From: Candidatus Aminicenantes bacterium
GTDB lineage: Bacteria > Acidobacteriota > Aminicenantia > Aminicenantales > JAFGBC01
Reading direction: 5' to 3'
Length of the DNA: 64,000 nucleotides
Assembly: GCA_963702005.1 (NCBI GenBank)
Contig: OY969696.1
Location: 576,001 to 640,000 of the forward strand
Part shown: positions 54,708-64,000 of the stretch, one piece after another
Position numbering within the stretch: the stretch's first letter is position 1
Layout: each line of letters starts with the position of its first letter
Position numbers and translations under genes: made by a program
The notes under the pieces: generated by a model
Told to the model about the DNA's origin: nothing
The model's input: only the letters and a program-made list of their open reading frames with translations
Databases searched by the model: none

Positions 54708-56966
54708 TCAGAGCTCAAAATGCTCCCACTCGTACTTCACACGCTCCATGAGCTTCTTGAAGCGCGCCTCGCCGCGGATGTTGGCCAGGAAGGGGTCCTT
54801 TTCGGCGAGCAGGGGGTAATTGGACATACCGAGGTTCACATCCTGCTCCAGCCAGTCGATCGCCCGCTCCTTTTCGTCGATCAGGGCAAGACACTCGGTC
54901 TTCCAATAGGCGCTCTGAAAATCCCACGGTTTCCGGAGGCTGGGATTCGAGTCCAGCATGGCCAACGTCTCGGACCTTTTTCCTTCTAAGGCAAATTTAA
55001 AAGCCATGCCCAGGCTTGCGAAGAGGGTCCCCGGCTGTTCTCGAGCGACTTGTTCGAAGATCAAGCCGGCTTCCTCCTTCTTGTCCAGATAAGCAAGGCT
55101 CAGGCCATAGCTCCATTTCGTCAGCACATCTTCGGGGAACGAACGATGGAGCCGGCCCAGGACCTCAAGGGCCAAGGCGTACTCTCCTTCCCAGAGCCTG
55201 TTGAATCCGGAGTGAAAATGGGCCGCGGCATTGAGAGGATCGATCTTGATGGTCCTTTCCTCGAGCGGCATGACGTCGCGCTTTCGGCCCAGCGTTCCGA
55301 GGAGACAGCTGAAAAAGAACAGAGCATCGAAATCGTTGGGGGCCTTATCCAGGACGCGCTTGAAGCATCGGATCCCCTCTTTCGGCTGATGCCAGGCGAT
55401 GAGCACGGCCCGGACAAAGCTGGCATTTGGGCAGTCCGGATCCAGGGCAAAGGCCTTTTGGACATACTCCTCGGCCTGCTTCCGGCAGGATTCCTCCTCC
55501 CTGATGCCGAGGTTGAAATATTGGAAATGGACATAGGCCATGCCCGCATAGAGAAGCGCGTTCTCCCCGACGATTTCGAGGCCGTTCCGGAGGTATCTCA
55601 GCGCGTTTTCCAGCCCCGCCTCCGTCCACTTGAGTATTTCCTGCCTGGCTTTGAGATAGAATTCGTAGGCCAGGGGGCTCGGGATCGGCCGCTCGATGAG
55701 GCGCTCGGCTTCTTCCGGCGTCAGCTTGAGTTTCAGGGCATCGACGATGGAGCGCGACACCTTCTCCTGGATATCGAACACGTCGTCCAGTGTGCCAGTG
55801 TATTTGTCTGCCCAAAGATGGGCGTCGTTGGCGGCATCGATGAGCTGGGCGGTGATGCGCAGGCTGTTGCCGGCTTTTCGGACGCTTCCCTCCAGAACGT
55901 ATCGGACATGAACCTCCCGGGCTATGGCCGGGATATCCTTTTTCGTTCCCTTGAACATCATGGACGAGGTCCGGGAGATCACTCGAAGGGAATGGATCTT
56001 GGACAGGTCCGAGATGAGCTCCTCGGTCATGCCGTCGCAGAAGTAATCCTGCTCCGGGTCCGGGCTGATATTCCCGAACGGCAGGACGATGATCGATATC
56101 TCCGGCTGGGGAACGCTCCTGCCCGAAGTCCGGGCGGCCTTGAGGTCGGCGAGGATCTTGGCCATGTTCTGGTAGCGGAGGGATTTGTCCTTCTCGAGAG
56201 CCTTTTGCACGATCCGCTCGAGCAGAACGGGGATGTCCGGGCGGAGACGGGTCAAAGGCTCGGGCGCCTCGTGCAATATGGAATAAATCAGAGCCTGGTC
56301 GCTTCTCCTGCCGAACGGCATCCGGCCGGACAGCATCTCGTAGAGCGTCGCCCCGAACGACCAGATGTCCGTGCGCTGGTCTACCGCCTCGGCTCTGGCC
56401 TGCTCCGGAGACATGTAGGCGACCGTTCCCATGACCGCCATGCTTCTGGTGATGTCGGCGGCGCCCGTGAGCTTGGCCAGTCCGAAGTCCATGATCTTCG
56501 CCTGGCCCTTGTCCGTCAGCATGATGTTCGCCGGCTTGATGTCCCGGTGAATGATGCCTCGCTCGTGAGCTTCCTTGAGCCCCTCGGCAACCTGGCCTGC
56601 GATCTCCAGAGCTTCCTCTATGGCCAAAGGCTCGGCCGCGATCCTGTCCTTGAGGCTGCGGCCCCTGATGTAAGGCATGGCGATATACGTCTTGCCTTCG
56701 GCCTCGCCGATTTCGAAGACGGGACAGATATTCGGGTGATCCAGGGCCGCGGCAGCCTGGGCTTCCTGGATAAAACGAGTCTTGGCTTGGACGTCTTTGG
56801 TCAGTTCGGGCGGCAGGAACTTGAGGGCGACGGTCCGCTTGAGCTTGGTATCCTCGGCCTCGTAGACGACGCCCATGCCGCCCTCCCCGAGTTTGCCGAG
56901 AATCCGGTAATGAGAAATCGTGGCAATCATAGCCTTGGGAGCTTTCCTCCCGTCGGCGGCATTCAT
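54708..56966 (-). CDS. Hanks-type Ser/Thr kinase with TolB-N-like and TPR regions
   Basis: LGEGGMGVVY, VALK, HRDIKPAN, DFG, YMSPEQ; IIVLPF.N...QDYFCDGMTEELI; helical repeats. Confidence 0.93.
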   Translation of the reverse strand: MNAADGRKAPKAMIATISHYRILGKLGEGGMGVVYEAEDTKLKRTVALKFLPPELTKDVQAKTRFIQEAQAAAALDHPNICPVFEIGEAEGKTYIAMPYIRGRSLKDRIAAEPLAIEEALEIAGQVAEGLKEAHERGIIHRDIKPANIMLTDKGQAKIMDFGLAKLTGAADITRSMAVMGTVAYMSPEQARAEAVDQRTDIWSFGATLYEMLSGRMPFGRRSDQALIYSILHEAPEPLTRLRPDIPVLLERIVQKALEKDKSLRYQNMAKILADLKAARTSGRSVPQPEISIIVLPFGNISPDPEQDYFCDGMTEELISDLSKIHSLRVISRTSSMMFKGTKKDIPAIAREVHVRYVLEGSVRKAGNSLRITAQLIDAANDAHLWADKYTGTLDDVFDIQEKVSRSIVDALKLKLTPEEAERLIERPIPSPLAYEFYLKARQEILKWTEAGLENALRYLRNGLEIVGENALLYAGMAYVHFQYFNLGIREEESCRKQAEEYVQKAFALDPDCPNASFVRAVLIAWHQPKEGIRCFKRVLDKAPNDFDALFFFSCLLGTLGRKRDVMPLEERTIKIDPLNAAAHFHSGFNRLWEGEYALALEVLGRLHRSFPEDVLTKWSYGLSLAYLDKKEEAGLIFEQVAREQPGTLFASLGMAFKFALEGKRSETLAMLDSNPSLRKPWDFQSAYWKTECLALIDEKERAIDWLEQDVNLGMSNYPLLAEKDPFLANIRGEARFKKLMERVKYEWEHFEL

Positions 56967-57186: not shown

Positions 57187-57594
57187 TTGATCTTCGGGAT
57201 GGGTACGGACATCATCGAGGTCCAGCGGGTGGAGGAGAAGCTGGCCCGCACCCGGGGCCTCCGCGAGAAGGTTTTCAGCCCGCGCGAGATCGAATACTGC
57301 GAGTCCAAGCACCGGCCCGGCCTCCACTTCGCGGCCCGCTTCGCGGCCAAGGAGGCGTTCCTGAAGGCCATGGGCACGGGATGGAGCGGAGGGCACGCCT
57401 TCACCGAGATCGAGATCGTCGACAACGCCCTGGGCAAGCCGGAGCTGTTCGTCTACGGCAAGGTCAAGGACTTCTGCGAGGCTAACGGGATCGCCGGGAT
57501 GGAGGTCTCGCTGTCCCATATCAAGGACCTGGCCCAGGCCGTCGTCGTCCTGGAACGGGGCCCGGCTCCTGAGCCGGACTCTTTTCAAAGGTAG
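57187..57594 (+). CDS. acpS: Holo-ACP synthase (phosphopantetheinyl transferase)
   Basis: GMGTDIIE, FAARFAAKEAFLKAMGTG, GKP, VSLSH. Confidence 0.95.
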   Translation: MIFGMGTDIIEVQRVEEKLARTRGLREKVFSPREIEYCESKHRPGLHFAARFAAKEAFLKAMGTGWSGGHAFTEIEIVDNALGKPELFVYGKVKDFCEANGIAGMEVSLSHIKDLAQAVVVLERGPAPEPDSFQR

Positions 57595-57617
57595 AAATTC
57601 CGTCGAAAGAGGCTTTC

Positions 57618-59321
57618 ATGTCGCACATCGGCTCCTATGACGATCGCCTGAAGAACTTCTCCTGGGACATCTCCGAGAAGGAGCTCGGCTACAAGCCGGG
57701 CGACGTCATCAACATCGCCTGGTACTGCACCGACCGCATCTGCCGGATGGGGAAAGGCAACAAGCTGGCCCTGATCTGGGAGGGGAGCACCGGGACGGAA
57801 AAGCGCTACACCTACAACGACATCCGCCTGGCCTCGAACACGATCGGGACGTACCTCCGCGGGCTCGGCCTCAAGCCGGGCGATCGGGTCTGCTTATTCA
57901 TGGACAAGATCCCCGAGCTCTACCTGGGCTTCCTGGGCATCCTCAAGATGGGCGCGATCGCCCAGCCCCTCTTCTCGGCCTTCGGCGACGAGTCCCTGTT
58001 CGTCCGCCTCTCGAACGCCGAGACCTCGGCCGTCATCACCCAGAAGAAACACGCCCCCAAGGTCCGCAAGATCCTGGACAAGCTTCCCTACCTCAAGCAC
58101 ATCATCATCGTCGATCACGACGGCGCCGCCCCCCTTAAAGAACGCGAGGCCGTTTTTAGCCTCGAGAAGGCTAAGCCGGTCGACGTCTTCGAGATCCATC
58201 CGACCAAGGCCGAGTCGCCCTCCGTCCTCCACTACACGTCGGGCACGACCGGAATGCCCAAGGGCGTCCAGCATGTCCACTACTCGCTCATCGCCCAGTA
58301 CCTGACCGGGAAGTGGGCCCTTGACCTCCGGGACGACGACATCTACTGGTGCACGGCCGACCCGGGCTGGGTGACCGGAACCTCCTACGGGATCATCGCG
58401 CCCTTCAGCCTGGGCGTCACCCAGTGCGTCCTCGACGCCGGGTTCCAAGCCGAGAGCTGGTACAAGTTCATCGAGAAGCGGCGGGTGTCGATGTGGTACT
58501 CGGCCCCGACCGCCATCCGCTCGCTCATGAAAGCGGGCGACGAAATCGTCAAGAAGCACGACCTGTCCTCCCTCCGCCACCTGGCCAGTGTCGGCGAGCC
58601 CCTCAACTCCGAGGCCGTCGTCTGGTCCCAGAAGGTCTTCGGCAAGCCCTTCTACGACACCTACTGGCAGACTGAAACGGGCTGCATCGTCATCAGCAAT
58701 TACCCGGGCATGGAGGTCCGGCCCGGCTCGATGGGCAAGCCCTTCCCGGGGATCACAGGCGTCGTCCTCGACCCGGTCAAGAACGAGCCCTACCCGGCGC
58801 CGGGCAAGATCGGGCTGGTCGCCCTCAAGTTCGACTGGCCCTCCCGGATGCGGACCTACTGGAATAACGAGGAAGCCTTCCGCAAGAAATTCAGGGGCGG
58901 CTGGTACATCACCGGCGACCGGTCGCGCCTCGACAACGACGGCTACTTCTGGTTCGCGGGCCGGGACGACGACATCATCAACACGGCCGGACACCTGGTC
59001 AGCCCATTCGAGGTTGAGTCGGCCCTGCTCGAGCATCCGGCCGTGGCCGAGTCGGCCGTCGTCAGCAAGCCCGACCCGATCAACCTCGAGGTCGTCAAGG
59101 CCTTCGTCACCCTCAAGCCCGGCTTCGCGGCCAGCAAGGACCTCGACCTCGAGATCATGAACTTCATCCGCAAGAAGCTCTCGCCGCTGGCCATGCCCCA
59201 GGAGATCGAGTTCGTGGAGGGCCTGCCCAAGACGCGGAGCGGTAAAATCATGCGCCGGATCCTCCACGCCAAGGAGTGGGGCGAGGAAATCGGCGACACC
59301 TCGACCCTCGAGAACGACTGA
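57618..59321 (+). CDS. AcsA-like short-chain acyl adenylating enzyme (acetate-CoA ligase family)
   Basis: YTSGTTGMPKG, WCTADPGWVTG, SVGEPLN, DTYWQTETG, PKTRSGKIMRR, GDTSTL. Confidence 0.9.
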   Translation: MSHIGSYDDRLKNFSWDISEKELGYKPGDVINIAWYCTDRICRMGKGNKLALIWEGSTGTEKRYTYNDIRLASNTIGTYLRGLGLKPGDRVCLFMDKIPELYLGFLGILKMGAIAQPLFSAFGDESLFVRLSNAETSAVITQKKHAPKVRKILDKLPYLKHIIIVDHDGAAPLKEREAVFSLEKAKPVDVFEIHPTKAESPSVLHYTSGTTGMPKGVQHVHYSLIAQYLTGKWALDLRDDDIYWCTADPGWVTGTSYGIIAPFSLGVTQCVLDAGFQAESWYKFIEKRRVSMWYSAPTAIRSLMKAGDEIVKKHDLSSLRHLASVGEPLNSEAVVWSQKVFGKPFYDTYWQTETGCIVISNYPGMEVRPGSMGKPFPGITGVVLDPVKNEPYPAPGKIGLVALKFDWPSRMRTYWNNEEAFRKKFRGGWYITGDRSRLDNDGYFWFAGRDDDIINTAGHLVSPFEVESALLEHPAVAESAVVSKPDPINLEVVKAFVTLKPGFAASKDLDLEIMNFIRKKLSPLAMPQEIEFVEGLPKTRSGKIMRRILHAKEWGEEIGDTSTLEND

Positions 59322-59351
59322 AATATTAATTCGCCGATAAGGAGCTTTGCC

Positions 59352-59606
59352 ATGGCCGATGCACTCAAGGACATCATTCTCGCCTACGTGACCAAGGAAT
59401 ACCTCGAGGACGACAGCGAGCCCCTCAACTACGAGACGCCCCTCATCTCGGGCGGGATCGTGGACTCGTTCTCGATGGTCTCCCTGAAGCGGTTCCTGGA
59501 GAACAAGTACAACATTTCGATCCCCGACGACAAGGCGACCCCGGAGGCCTTCGACTCGGTCGACAAGATCGCCGTCCTCGTCCGGGAATTCGTCAAGGAG
59601 TCTTAA
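59352..59606 (+). CDS. Stand-alone acyl/aminoacyl carrier protein
   Basis: 84 aa, acidic, GIVDSFSMV phosphopantetheine-site motif. Confidence 0.9.
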   Translation: MADALKDIILAYVTKEYLEDDSEPLNYETPLISGGIVDSFSMVSLKRFLENKYNISIPDDKATPEAFDSVDKIAVLVREFVKES

Positions 59607-59608
59607 GG

Positions 59609-60856
59609 ATGGCATTCAGCGCTAAAATTCGCGAGAACTACCAGGCCCAGATCAAGGGCATCCGGGACGCCGGGATCTTCAAGCAGGAGCGGTTCATCCA
59701 TTCCCCCCAGGCGGCCGACATCGAGGTCGAGTTTCCGGCCGGCGCGCCCCTCAAGAAGGTCATCAACATGTGCGCCAACAACTACCTCGGGCTGTCCAGC
59801 CACCCCGAGGTCCTCAAGGCCGCCCATGAGGGGCTGGACACGCGCGGCTACGGCATGTCCTCGGTCCGCTTTATCTGCGGGACCCAGGACATCCACCGCG
59901 AGCTCGAGAAGCGCCTGACCGAGTTCCTGGGGACCGAGGACACCCTCCTCTTCCCCTCCTGCATGGACGCCAACGCCGGCGTCTTCGAGGCGATCCTGAC
60001 CAAGGACGACGTCATCATCTCGGACCGGCTCGTCCACGCCTCGCTCATCGACGGCATCCGGCTGTGCAGCGCGATGCAGGACTCGATCAAGCACTCCGAC
60101 ATGGCCCACCTCGAGGAGAAGCTCCAGCTCCACAAGGACAAGCGCTTCAAGCTCGTCGTCAGCGACGGCGTCTTCTCGATGGACGGCGACACGGCCAAGC
60201 TCGACGAGATGGTCGCCCTCTGCGAAAAATACGACGCCATGCTCCTCGTCGACGACTCGCACTCCTCGGGCTTCATCGGAAAAACGGGCCGCGGGACGCA
60301 CGAGAAATGCGGCGTCGTGGGCAAGATCGACGTCATCACCACGACCTTCGGCAAGGCGCTCGGGGGCGCTTCGGGCGGCTGCGTCAGCGGGCGCCGCGAG
60401 CTCGTCGAGATGTGCCGTCAGCGGGCTCGGCCGTACCTCTTCTCGAACACGATCGCCCCGGTCGTCGTCGCCGGCGTCCTCAAGGTCATGGACATCATCT
60501 CCCGGTCGACCGAGCGGCGCGACAAGCTCGAGCGGAACGCGGCCTACTGGCGCAAGGGCCTGACCGAGGCCGGCTTCGTCCTCAAAGAAGGCGACACGCC
60601 GATCGTCCCGGTCATGCTCTTCAACGCCAAGCTGGCCCAGGACGTCTCGCGGGCGCTCTACGAGGAAGGGATCTACGCCATCGGGTTCTTCTTCCCGGTC
60701 GTGCCCCAGAGCCAGGCCCGGATCCGGACCCAGATCTCGGCCGGCCACGAAATCCACCATCTCGACAAGGCCCTGGACGCTTTCCGCAAGGTCGGAAAAA
60801 ACTTCGACATCCTGGGCAAGACCAAGCAAGAGATCATCGCCAAGTACGGTATGTAA
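59609..60856 (+). CDS. kbl: Glycine C-acetyltransferase-like PLP 2-oxoamine synthase
   Basis: CANNYLGL, SSVRFICGTQ, HASLIDG, DGVFSMDG, DDSH, TFGKALGG, RPYLFSN. Confidence 0.9.
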   Translation: MAFSAKIRENYQAQIKGIRDAGIFKQERFIHSPQAADIEVEFPAGAPLKKVINMCANNYLGLSSHPEVLKAAHEGLDTRGYGMSSVRFICGTQDIHRELEKRLTEFLGTEDTLLFPSCMDANAGVFEAILTKDDVIISDRLVHASLIDGIRLCSAMQDSIKHSDMAHLEEKLQLHKDKRFKLVVSDGVFSMDGDTAKLDEMVALCEKYDAMLLVDDSHSSGFIGKTGRGTHEKCGVVGKIDVITTTFGKALGGASGGCVSGRRELVEMCRQRARPYLFSNTIAPVVVAGVLKVMDIISRSTERRDKLERNAAYWRKGLTEAGFVLKEGDTPIVPVMLFNAKLAQDVSRALYEEGIYAIGFFFPVVPQSQARIRTQISAGHEIHHLDKALDAFRKVGKNFDILGKTKQEIIAKYGM

Positions 60857-60892: not shown

Positions 60893-62824
60893 GTGTCCGA
60901 GTACGATTTCGTCTACAAATCCTTCGAGGTCATGGCCCCTGAGGACTACGCCCGGGTCGGGTTCAAATCTGGCCTGGAGATCCACCAGCAGCTCCTGACC
61001 GCCAAGAAGCTTTTCTGCCGCTGCCCGGCCGGACGCTACTCCTCCAAATACGACGCCGAGATCCTCCGCCACATGAGGCCGACCCTGTCCGAATTGGGGG
61101 AGTACGACGGCACCGCCCTGATGGAGTTCAAGACCAAGAAGGAGATCATCTACCGGATCAACCGGGAAACGGTCTGCACCTACGAAATGGACGACACGCC
61201 GCCCTTCATGATCGATGAGGATGCCCTCGACATCGCGCTGGGGATCGGCCTCCTCTACAACTGCGTCATGGTCGATGAGCTCCACATCGCCCGCAAACAG
61301 TACCTGGACGGGTCGATCCCGACCGGCTTCCAGCGGACAACCATCGTCGGCGTCGACGGACATATCCCCTACGAAGGCCGCCAAATCCGGATCATCCAGC
61401 TCGGCCTCGAGGAGGACGCCTGCCGCGAGGTCAGTGACGTCGGCCACCGCCGGACCTACCTGACCGACCGGCTGGGAATGCCGCTGATCGAAACGGTGAC
61501 CGCCCCCGACATGAAAACGCCCCACGAGGTGGCCGAGGTCGGGCAAATCCTGCGCCGGATCGTCCGGAGCACGGGCCGGGTCAGGACCGGGATGGGGGCC
61601 GCCCGCGAGGACGTCAATGTCAGCGTCACGGGAGGCACACGGGTCGAGATCAAGGGCGTCCCGCGCCTCCCCCGCATTCCTCTCCTGACTTACAACGAGG
61701 GCATGAGGCAATGGAACCTCCTCCGCCTTCGCGAGGAGCTCGGCCGGCGCGGCATCACGACCGAGAGCTTCGGGTCCGAGTACCAGGAGATCACCAGGGT
61801 TCTGCGCCGGACGGCCTATCTTCCGATCCGGTCCGCCCTCGACTCCGGACTCAGCGTTTACGGGGTGCGTCTGCGCGGATTCCGGGGGATTCTCCTCTGG
61901 CAAACCCAGACCAACACGGTCTTTTCCCAGGAGATCTCGGACCGCGTCCGGGTCATCGCCTGCCTGACGACCCTCCCCAACATCATCCATTCCGACAGCC
62001 CGGGCGAGACGCTGGCGAGCTCCGAGTGGCTGAGCGTCAAGAAAGCCCTCAACGCCCGCGACGAAGATACGCTCGTCCTGGTCTGGGGCCCGGCCGAGGA
62101 CGCGCTGACCGGGGCCAAGGAGATCGTCATCCGGGCCAAGGAGGCGACGATCGGGATTCCATCCGAGACGCGCCAGGCCCTGGCCGACGGGACGAACGGG
62201 TTCGAGCGGATTCTGCCCGGACCGAACCGGATGTATCCGGACACGGACCTTCCGCCCAAGCCGGTGCCCGCCGAGCGGCTGGAGCGGATCCGGGCGGGGC
62301 TCCCGCCCCGAATCGTGGATCGGGAAATCCGCTATAAAGAGATTGGAGTCCCGGCCGACCTGCGCTCCGCGCTGGCCGTGTCGCCGTGGGCGGAGCTTTT
62401 CGAAAAGCTCATCGGCGAAAATAAGCTGCCGGCTTCGCTCGCGGCCGTCGTCCTCGTCCAGTATCCGAAGAGACTCAGGACGAAAGGGCTTCCGGCGGAG
62501 GGGCTGAGCGGGGACATGTTCCAATCCGCCTTCGCGGCGTTCAAGGACAGCCGCGTTTCCCGGGATGGCATTCTCGCGCTTCTGGAGGGCGCCCTCAGCG
62601 ACGGAAAGAATATCGGCGAGCTCGTTCCTCCGCCTTTCGACAAAGCCGACTTCGAAAAACGTCTGGCCGGGATCCCCGGCGACGTCAAAGGACGCTGTTT
62701 CGCCGATGCCGAGAGCCGTTGGCGCTATGTCATGGGGCTGGTCATGAAGGACTGGCGCGGACGGCTCGAGGGACGGACGGCGGCCGAGGAAGTCCGGCGG
62801 CGCTTGGAGAGGGTCAAGGCATGA
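60893..62824 (+). CDS. gatE: Glu-tRNA(Gln) amidotransferase subunit E
   Basis: GLEIHQQL..KKLFC.CP, RPTLSELGE.D, DGSIPTGFQRT, LEEDA, DRLG.PLIE, RVEIKGV, long central insertion, ETR.A..DG, RMYP.TD, MGLVMK..RG tail. Confidence 0.92.
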   Translation: MSEYDFVYKSFEVMAPEDYARVGFKSGLEIHQQLLTAKKLFCRCPAGRYSSKYDAEILRHMRPTLSELGEYDGTALMEFKTKKEIIYRINRETVCTYEMDDTPPFMIDEDALDIALGIGLLYNCVMVDELHIARKQYLDGSIPTGFQRTTIVGVDGHIPYEGRQIRIIQLGLEEDACREVSDVGHRRTYLTDRLGMPLIETVTAPDMKTPHEVAEVGQILRRIVRSTGRVRTGMGAAREDVNVSVTGGTRVEIKGVPRLPRIPLLTYNEGMRQWNLLRLREELGRRGITTESFGSEYQEITRVLRRTAYLPIRSALDSGLSVYGVRLRGFRGILLWQTQTNTVFSQEISDRVRVIACLTTLPNIIHSDSPGETLASSEWLSVKKALNARDEDTLVLVWGPAEDALTGAKEIVIRAKEATIGIPSETRQALADGTNGFERILPGPNRMYPDTDLPPKPVPAERLERIRAGLPPRIVDREIRYKEIGVPADLRSALAVSPWAELFEKLIGENKLPASLAAVVLVQYPKRLRTKGLPAEGLSGDMFQSAFAAFKDSRVSRDGILALLEGALSDGKNIGELVPPPFDKADFEKRLAGIPGDVKGRCFADAESRWRYVMGLVMKDWRGRLEGRTAAEEVRRRLERVKA

Positions 62825-64000
62825 ACGACGCCAACCTCTATAAAGGATACAAGGGCCGGGCCCTGGAGGTCCTCCAGAGCTTCCAGGCCCAGGTCTGGAG
62901 CGACGTCGTGATCAAGACCGATCGGGGCGAATACGTCGGCATCGTCCTGCCGCGCTCCGAGACGGCCGACCCCTTGCACGTCGTGCTCAAGCTCCGTTCG
63001 GGCTACAACATCGGAATCCTGGCCGAGAGCGTCCGCGAGGTCGAGATCCGGGGCCGCAAGGAAGCCCACTATAAGATCCCCGAGAAGGAATTTCCCTACG
63101 ACCCGGCCAAGCCGAGGGTGAAGCTTCTGGGAACGGGCGGCACGATCGCCAGCCGGCTCGACTACCGGACGGGCGCCGTCATCCCGGCCTTCTCGCCGGG
63201 CGAGCTCTACGGCTCGGTCCCCGAGCTGGCCGACATCTGCAACCTCGAAACCGAGAAACTCTTCGGCGTCTTCAGCGAGAACATGGGACCCGAACAGTAC
63301 ATCGGGACGGCCGAGGCCATCGGCCGCGAGATCAAGAAGGGGGTCGACGGGATCGTCATCGGCCACGGCACCGACACCATGCACCACACCGTCGGCCATC
63401 CTGTCCTTCATGGTTCAGAATTCGCCGGTGCCGATCGTCATGGTCGGCTCCCAGCGTTCGAGCGACCGGCCTTCATCGGACGCCGCCCTCAACCTCATGC
63501 ACAGCGTCAAGACGGCGGCCGAGAGCAACATCGCCGAGGTCATGGTCTGCATGTTCGGGCCGACCTCGGCCATCTACGGCCTCCTCCACCGCGGGACGCG
63601 CGTCCGCAAGATGCACTCGAGCTACCGCTCGACCTTCCGGACGATCGGGGATATTCCGCTGGCCATGGTCAGCCGGGAGAAGATCACGCCGCTGCGCCGC
63701 GACTACAAGCGTCGCCGGAACGACAAGAACGTCGTCATCAACACGGCCTTCGAGGAGAAGGTCGCCATCGTCTACTATTACCCCAACATGAAGCCGGACA
63801 TCATCGACTCCCTGATCGACAACGGCTACCTGGGGATCATCATCGCCGGGACGGGGCTGGGGCATGTCAACAAGCCGCTCTACCCGTCGCTCAAGCGGGC
63901 CCAGGACAAGAAGATCGCGGTGTACATGACCGTCCAGACGCTTTGGGGCTACGTCCAGATGTACGTCTACGACACGGGGCGGGACATGATGGAGCTGGGC
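62821..64000 (+). CDS. gatD: Glu-tRNA(Gln) amidotransferase subunit D, +1 frameshift near 63390, runs off the window
   Basis: Manual translation: LKLRSGYNIG (GatD N-domain), TGGTIASRLDYRTG, HGTDTM; after the shift VGSQRSSDRPSSDA, RVRKMHS, GTGLGH. Confidence 0.9.
   Translation, partial: MNDANLYKGYKGRALEVLQSFQAQVWSDVVIKTDRGEYVGIVLPRSETADPLHVVLKLRSGYNIGILAESVREVEIRGRKEAHYKIPEKEFPYDPAKPRVKLLGTGGTIASRLDYRTGAVIPAFSPGELYGSVPELADICNLETEKLFGVFSENMGPEQYIGTAEAIGREIKKGVDGIVIGHGTDTMHHTVGHPVLHGSEFAGADRHGRLPAFERPAFIGRRPQPHAQRQDGGREQHRRGHGLHVRADLGHLRPPPPRDARPQDALELPLDLPDDRGYSAGHGQPGEDHAAAPRLQASPERQERRHQHGLRGEGRHRLLLPQHEAGHHRLPDRQRLPGDHHRRDGAGACQQAALPVAQAGPGQEDRGVHDRPDALGLRPDVRLRHGAGHDGAG

Follow-up and report, generated by a model that had tools for sequence, protein, structure and literature searches.

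A GatDE-type amidotransferase operon of an Aminicenantes genome belongs to a large bacterial clade and stands beside a complete GlnRS pathway

What does GatDE, which has been called "an archaeal signature protein" (PMC2330236) and is stated to occur "exclusively in archaea" (PMC2811023), do in a bacterium that can charge tRNA-Gln directly? The question is raised by a stretch of 64,000 nucleotides (in the following, the window) from Candidatus Aminicenantes bacterium (assembly GCA_963702005.1, contig OY969696.1), which corresponds to positions 576001-640000 of the single 4.31-Mb contig (C1) of its source genome (G000, completeness 94%) and which carries gatE, followed by gatD, at its right-hand end. 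The answer reaches beyond the locus: arguments about the last universal common ancestor and about why archaea never acquired glutaminyl-tRNA synthetase (GlnRS) rest on a GatDE confined to archaea. The operon described here is resident, evolves under purifying selection and belongs to a large bacterial GatDE clade; it represents neither contamination nor a recent import.

The protein encoded by gatE passes both NCBIfam equivalog models for GatE, NF003107 (511.2 bits, cut-off 456) and TIGR00134 (441 bits, cut-off 319.55), and fails the models for GatB, the highest-scoring of which gave no more than 127.4 bits (cut-off 338). It aligns over its full length with the solved archaeal chains 1zq1_C (341.5 bits; residues 18-641 of the window protein with residues 9-630 of the chain) and 2d6f_C (310.2 bits), with the RPTLSELGE motif as well as the central insertion domain inside the aligned region. 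In Pfam, the GatB_N match extends over residues 26-460 for 271 model positions, which means that the insertion is present, and the tail matches GatB_Yqey with 24 bits, under the cut-off of 27. The first-pass annotation of this DNA had proposed a GatE of 643 residues with this motif and insertion and a comparison of GatE with GatB models; the cut-offs and the alignments to the two archaeal chains bear the proposal out.

Downstream of gatE, a GatD_N domain (51.1 bits) and the N and C domains of asparaginase were found. The gatD gene, whose 3' end lies 210 bases beyond the end of the window, is divided in this assembly into an N-terminal and a C-terminal part by a frameshift that is discussed below. 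The two parts match TIGR02153 with 160.7 bits (model positions 2-155) and 320.3 bits (156-403), each singly below the cut-off of 324, and jointly cover positions 2-403 of 405. The N-terminal part aligns with residues 2-183 of 2d6f_A and the C-terminal part from residue 184 of the same chain; in 1zq1_A the latter corresponds to residues 186-386. Against the solved chains of 1ZQ1 and 2D6F, the C-terminal part scored 205.1 and 175.4 bits and the N-terminal part 120 and 155.4 bits, respectively. The motifs TGGT, HGTDT and SQRSSDRPSSDA line up with solved GatD, and the motif SQRSSD is present. The protein is thus a GatD with its own N-terminal domain and asparaginase motifs, as had been proposed, and not a plain asparaginase, which is borne out by the GatD_N match and the coverage of TIGR02153.

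Both subunits have the domain order of archaeal GatDE as solved for Pyrococcus abyssi (1ZQ1) and, together with tRNA-Gln, for Methanothermobacter thermautotrophicus (2D6F): GatE consists of a cradle domain, an AspRS-like insertion, a helical domain and a YqeY-like tail, with about 32-39% identity between the window protein and archaeal representatives, and GatD of GatD_N and an asparaginase-type amidase. Bacterial GatCAB belongs to the same reaction class, and GatE and GatB are paralogues (models for GatB reach at most 127 bits on GatE), but the ammonia donor subunit of GatCAB is amidase-like and that of GatDE asparaginase-like. The assignment of the operon to the GatDE type can be regarded as secure. 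The ratio of nonsynonymous to synonymous substitution rates (dN/dS) is 0.17-0.26 for gatE in comparison with four relatives and 0.07-0.19 for gatD in comparison with relatives, a constraint similar to that on the control genes for glutamyl-tRNA synthetase (GluRS, 0.195) and GlnRS (0.083). The two genes behave like a self-contained cassette: gatD adjoins gatE in 90 of 92 related loci, and across 93 loci no conserved neighbours were found, the sole recurring genes being gatE (93) and gatD (89-91).

Apart from the archaeal reputation of the family, nothing favours the mis-binning or mis-joining of a piece of archaeal DNA into a bacterial assembly, and the chance of such an artefact is negligible. 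The genome is a single contig, and the content of guanine and cytosine (GC) at gatE-gatD (0.636-0.648) is that of most of the window, in which most 2-kb segments have values of 0.59-0.66 and a few lower ones. Bacterial genes flank the pair on both sides; recA (549 bits), uvrA, acpS and a gene for glycine C-acetyltransferase lie within the window. The host-like GC content and the bacterial neighbourhood noted in the first-pass annotation thus hold for the GC range and for recA, and the chimeric contig that it had considered is not what was found, GatE being above cut-off in 23 of 41 genomes from the same order, with the pair adjacent at nearly all related loci as given above. Moreover, the best 80 of at least 583 related loci all carry bacterial record titles.

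These loci come from a scan of species-representative genomes, which returned at least 600 matched stretches, at least 583 of them coding for a relative. Within the best 80, identities amount to 59-82% for Candidatus Aminicenantes and to 59-68% for metagenome-assembled genomes labelled Ignavibacteria, Bacteroidota, Kapabacteria or Chlorobi. A comparison with 1.84 billion cluster representatives gave 674 matching proteins at E <= 1e-30, and named members of deeper branches include candidate division CSSED10-310 and Candidatus Coatesbacteria. Public databases already label these bacterial proteins GatE.

The phylogenetic position of the bacterial proteins was the same in three GatE trees, all rooted with GatB and with supports given as FastTree values or quick SH-aLRT values. 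A clade with all bacterially labelled rows obtained a support of 100 with FastTree (132 rows), and the bacterial clade likewise reached 100 in quick IQ-TREE runs with LG+G4 (54 rows) and with LG+C20 PMSF (43 rows); its sister in each case was the representative P0039 (supports 98, 99 and 96, respectively), whose cluster contains a protein named Candidatus Heimdallarchaeota. Branches neighbouring the bacterial clade are labelled Thorarchaeota, and the named relatives of P0051 add Njord-, Odin-, Baldr-, Hod- and Promethearchaeota, Bathyarchaeota and Thermoprotei as neighbours. Of 30 clusters looked up, seven had any name and three an organism name, so that the label "archaeal side" used below is based on three organism names, on the named neighbours linked through P0051 and on the known distribution of the family. 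In the crown group, copies from Aminicenantes and Ignavibacteria are interleaved, with weak resolution, and because of this interleaving a later exchange between bacterial phyla is suggested. The old transfer postulated in the first-pass annotation agrees with a bacterial clade that is deep, diverse and placed among Asgard-labelled GatE proteins. The rarity that it had assumed was not confirmed; the window copy is unremarkable within a bacterial clade that has been little described, and it is one of very many bacterial copies.

No published description of a bacterial GatDE was found in the literature, which was covered mostly at the level of titles and abstracts. A survey of bacterial GluRS, GlnRS and gatCAB from 2014 remarked of the lone GlnRS of Ignavibacterium album that it "may not be functional", and the term "gatE" has no occurrence in that paper (PMC3927822).

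With regard to function, homology suggests a heterodimeric tRNA-dependent amidotransferase, in which it predicts that GatD, an asparaginase-type amidase, would free ammonia from Gln or Asn, that GatE would use ATP to phosphorylate the side-chain carboxyl group of Glu on Glu-tRNA(Gln), and that GatE would then amidate the activated Glu to give Gln-tRNA(Gln). In this host, the enzyme would have to read a bacterial-type tRNA-Gln (U1-A72, G73) and not the archaeal A1-U72 type, and it would act beside a complete direct GlnRS pathway and not instead of it. We lean, with restrained confidence, towards this canonical mechanism, with a bacterial tRNA-Gln as its target and with GatDE adding a second or corrective route to that of GlnRS; for the role, our best guess is that the enzyme serves as an additional or back-up supply or else in repair, by removing Glu-tRNA(Gln). 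Chemistry, substrate and physiological role are in this respect all predictions from homology.

Several observations on the host, its relatives and the enzyme itself weigh against such a route. The GlnRS of G000 (722.8 bits) retains the Gln-pocket residues of the Escherichia coli enzyme (Arg30, Tyr211, Ser227, Cys229 and Gln255), which points to redundancy, and three of the 41 genomes of the order possess GlnRS without either amidotransferase, which makes GatDE look dispensable. The single GluRS of G000 has Arg at the position of Arg358 of the Thermus thermophilus enzyme and is hence of the discriminating type, and the same Arg occurs in all nine readable enzymes from relatives with both GatDE and GlnRS (ten were fetched, one with a truncated open reading frame); according to PMC2978374, exchange of Arg358 for Gln in a discriminating GluRS suffices to make the enzyme non-discriminating. 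Because the direct GlnRS route is present and the sole GluRS is of the discriminating type, a source of the canonical substrate of GatDE is not predicted in G000. In addition, archaeal GatDE is described as recognising A1-U72 in tRNA-Gln (PMC2330236, PMC9499178). In the tail of GatE, the motif GXXAXGX, which PMC2811023 ties to tRNA discrimination, is lost in the bacterial clade: Gly at its position 1 is found in 0 of 22 bacterial rows versus 17 of 27 rows of the archaeal side, and Ala at position 4 in 5 of 22 versus 22 of 27. Finally, the gatD frame is split in the only assembly available for this strain.

The amidotransferases and synthetases of the related genomes show that the coexistence with GlnRS is the rule. 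In the order, 22 of the 23 genomes with GatE also contain GlnRS, the exception being 83% complete, and 8 of the 12 genomes with GatB are devoid of GlnRS; GatE, GatB and GlnRS occur together in two of the 41. Of 32 GatE-containing genomes with an Ignavibacteria, Bacteroidota or Chlorobi label, 29 have GlnRS above cut-off and 18 have GatB above it. The numbers for GatE and GlnRS in both groups contradict a mutual exclusion of GatDE and GlnRS. This cross-tabulation of GlnRS, GluRS and tRNA features for two phyla and the private frameshift in gatD are what is added here, and the question that they raise is which role a Glu-tRNA(Gln) amidotransferase can have where the only GluRS looks discriminating. 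In G000 itself, the first-pass annotation had led us to look for an absence of both glnS and gatCAB. The former is present; with respect to the latter, the sole GatB match in a profile search was gatE itself (91.2 bits, cut-off 314.8) and the best GatA match reached 224.7 bits (cut-off 481.1), both under the cut-off, no search having been made for gatC. The replacement of GlnRS that had been implied is not supported, since a GlnRS with its Gln-binding residues means that GatDE is not the sole route to Gln-tRNA(Gln). The notion that this GlnRS is a disguised tRNA-Gln-specific GluRS feeding GatDE was rejected, as all five pocket residues are kept. One genome of the same order (G007, 92% complete) has GatE, GatB and GlnRS all under cut-off, yet contains two GluRS-like genes; this reflects either an overlooked piece or a way to Gln-tRNA(Gln) that is unexplained.

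The GluRS of G000 comprises 432 residues and is encoded directly upstream of glnS (G000:C1:2363331-2366295). The Arg at the position of Arg358 is also present in all three genomes that have GlnRS as their only means, whereas three genomes with GatCAB only encode two GluRS each, one with Arg and the other with Thr, Asn or Gly at this position. The rule for Arg358 was derived from a single enzyme and may admit exceptions. As an observation in its own right, the protein is devoid of about 40-50 residues of a catalytic-domain insertion found in most solved bacterial GluRS, and only 8jpv_A (448 aa) aligns with it over its whole length. A short GluRS adjoining glnS recurs in the relatives with GlnRS, in contrast to the two longer GluRS (485-511 aa) of the relatives with GatCAB only, a pattern that suggests a joint acquisition of gltX-glnS.

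Both tRNA-Gln genes of G000 (anticodons UUG and CUG) specify the bacterial U1-A72 pair and G73; the pair was read by hand and from Infernal boundaries, scripted reading being unreliable where aragorn adds a base. The presumed substrate thus carries the pair that is read by GatCAB (PMC2811023), and the host, with GlnRS, a discriminating-type GluRS and U1-A72, differs in all three respects from an archaeon with a non-discriminating GluRS, no GlnRS and A1-U72 as described in PMC2330236. For archaeal GatDE, complex formation with the non-discriminating GluRS is reported (PMC9499178). On the enzyme side, two elements can be compared. According to PMC2811023, a short, positively charged loop of GatE sits by the tRNA's first base pair, and bacterial GatB has a longer 3-10 turn at this place, whose two extra residues (NMEE in the GatB of the relatives) are tied there to the reading of U1-A72. 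This loop has GatE length in all 49 GatE rows and is two residues longer in the GatB rows, so that the window GatE shares the length of archaeal GatDE and is without the extra residues of GatB; its sequence is GAARED or GAARQD in the crown bacterial rows versus GTIRQD in the rows of the archaeal side. The second element is the GXXAXGX motif of archaeal GatE, at whose columns the window protein reads A-E-S-R-W-R-Y, so that the motif is not kept. The first-pass annotation had expected an adaptation of the tRNA or of the enzyme. The first part did not stand, and because tRNA-Gln is unchanged any adaptation would have to lie on the enzyme side, where we infer it from the loss of the tail motif. 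The changes in loop and tail would fit a re-tuned recognition of tRNA, without indicating what is recognised.

The same changes in the elements highlighted by PMC2811023 can also be taken as a sign that GatDE has been kept for something besides the supply of Gln-tRNA(Gln) to translation, a new function that we consider possible but doubtful. Here GatDE might amidate another acyl- or aminoacyl-tRNA, act under specific conditions only or serve as a tRNA-binding partner. Such a function would explain why GatDE travels with GlnRS and a discriminating-type GluRS, and it is in line with the high frequency of GlnRS in the GatE-containing genomes of both groups, with the additional GatB in more than half of the Ignavibacteria- or Bacteroidota-type genomes, with the Arg of the sole GluRS and with the strong purifying selection on gatE and gatD. 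However, no other substrate is indicated, not even by conserved gene neighbours, and both proteins pass the equivalog models or sum above them, with their catalytic motifs kept. The restriction of the Arg358 rule to one enzyme applies here as well, and a genome with GatE, two GluRS-like genes and no GlnRS (G042) fits the canonical role, though GatB is also found there. Somewhat broader, and equally tentative, is the view that bacterial GatDE represents a distinct, widespread enzyme with its nearest archaeal kin in Asgard archaea and with either a non-canonical substrate or a conditional second route to Gln-tRNA(Gln). If this view were true, bacterial GatDE would be no stand-in for GlnRS, together with which, and with a discriminating-type GluRS, it is nearly always kept. 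We nevertheless give preference to the canonical mechanism in a second or corrective route.

A role in asparagine supply, with GatDE serving as Asp-tRNA(Asn) amidotransferase in the manner of GatCAB in Thermus and Deinococcus, appears highly improbable. It would be in keeping with the missing GatCAB, as far as GatA and GatB are concerned, and with the fact that no tRNA-Asn gene was detected in the assembly: aragorn with default settings listed 52 tRNAs in the 4.31 Mb and none for Asn, the 45 Infernal matches to RF00005 all fell on places listed by aragorn, and a pattern search of G000 for an Asn anticodon arm and T loop gave no match. The assembly may have a gap or an error that accounts for this absence. 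Yet AsnRS is present (457.7 bits) and occurs in 40 of the order's 41 genomes irrespective of their amidotransferase; two asparagine synthetases exceed their cut-offs (502.3 and 475 bits), and there is one AspRS only, of bacterial type, the third class IIb match being LysRS. In Deinococcus, Thermus and Bdellovibrio, the amidotransferase is GatCAB, which makes asparagine together with a second, non-discriminating AspRS. G000 differs from these organisms by having two asparagine synthetases and no second AspRS among its class IIb matches. It resembles them in retaining, next to a full set of direct charging enzymes, a tRNA-dependent amidotransferase that appears redundant (PMC4206432).

The remaining question concerns the integrity of gatD. 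The first frame reads ...GHGTDTMHHT and the second resumes as SAILSFMVQNSPVPIVMVGSQRSSD..., with exactly one base in surplus and no residue lost, since residue 183 of 2d6f_A is followed by residue 184 (Table 1). At the site, G000 has CACCACACCGTCGG, and the two genomes of the same genus, G001 with CACCACACGTCGG and G002 with CACCACACGGCGG, are both free of the extra base. Contigs from all four public sequencing runs that cross the site (X1, X2, X3 and X6, from three studies) skip one base at 63391/63392, the depth without the base being 7/7 in X1, 16 + 27.9 of 43.9 in X2, 40.4/53.3 in X3 and 44.2/57.3 plus 3.53/122.3 in X6; these contigs stem from related strains, the best share of the exact stretch in any run being 0.18, and one contig of 148 bases has two mismatches to the window besides the missing base. 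Among 90 related loci with a gatD match, gatD is a single open frame in all 81 that cover both parts well, the other nine being only incompletely covered. A programmed frameshift was ruled out, there being no slippery site and the base being absent from relatives.

Because the extra C is absent from relatives and run contigs, because dN/dS downstream of the shift is as low as 0.067-0.087 in comparison with four relatives, and because a second gene is split in the same assembly, we interpret it as probably an error in the assembly consensus and, failing that, as a very young lesion. That gatD is truly broken in this strain, GatDE being dispensable beside GlnRS and its loss having just begun, is improbable. 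The split frame in the only available assembly would fit this, as would the position of the lesion at a CC dinucleotide with no long homopolymer, and the three genomes of the order that have GlnRS and neither amidotransferase demonstrate that loss happens. Against it stand the fact that there is one lesion alone, the constraint past the lesion, the missing base in both same-genus genomes and in the contigs of four runs, and the occurrence of at least one further frame-split conserved gene in the same single-contig assembly; moreover, split genes of the synthetase and amidotransferase families are also seen in other single- or long-contig relatives (GlnRS in G023 and G071, GatB in G043). In any case, the question of pseudogenisation concerns this one assembly only.

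The second split gene encodes an Na:alanine symporter (G000:C1:2794143-2795634), which is divided between two frames at about 2794566 in G000 and is continuous in G001, with an open frame of 506 residues (PF01235, 492 bits). A second split candidate (L122) had no match in Pfam. In a reciprocal control of G000 against G001, as many apparent splits were counted in the reverse direction (12 against 8 query open reading frames); GC-rich DNA keeps shadow frames open, so that such counts cannot tell which assembly is at fault, and nucleotide indel counts between the two genomes are uninformative at about 85% identity.

Table 1 Coordinates of the gatE-gatD operon and of the frameshift site, numbered from the first nucleotide of the window
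Feature	Position	Strand	Description	Basis
gatE	60893..62824	+	643 aa, GTG start; kinase/transamidase subunit of GatDE	Open reading frame and profile match
ATGA overlap	62821..62824	+	gatE stop/gatD start (translational coupling)	Sequence, ends of open reading frames
gatD, N-terminal part	62821..63390	+	190 aa; GatD_N and first half of asparaginase-type glutaminase domain (TGGT, HGTDT)	
Frameshift site	63389..63392	+	One extra C; CACCACAC[C]GTCGG in G000 versus CACCACACGTCGG or CACCACACGGCGG in same-genus genomes	
gatD, C-terminal part	63392..64000	+	272 aa in all, other frame; continues to G000:C1:640210	

Some further features of the surroundings and of the genome were recorded. Directly upstream of gatE, four genes on the same strand (57187-60856, +) are separated by gaps of 3-37 bases and encode AcpS, a protein of the AMP-forming acetate-CoA-ligase type (751.5 bits versus 729), a carrier protein of 84 residues with weak similarity to the acyl carrier protein of ornithine-lipid synthesis, and a glycine C-acetyltransferase/alpha-oxoamine synthase (569 bits). 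Together they resemble a starter module of the aminolipid or sphingolipid type, and the set is not kept beside the amidotransferase genes at other loci. On the opposite strand (54708-56966, -) lies a gene for a protein of 752 residues that begins with a Ser/Thr kinase domain at its N-terminus and whose long C-terminal region appears, by eye, TPR-like. Elsewhere in the genome (G000:C1:1789899-1792093), a tRNA-Glu(CUC) gene has a 5'-truncated copy about 2 kb further downstream, an arrangement that might be the trace of an integration site.

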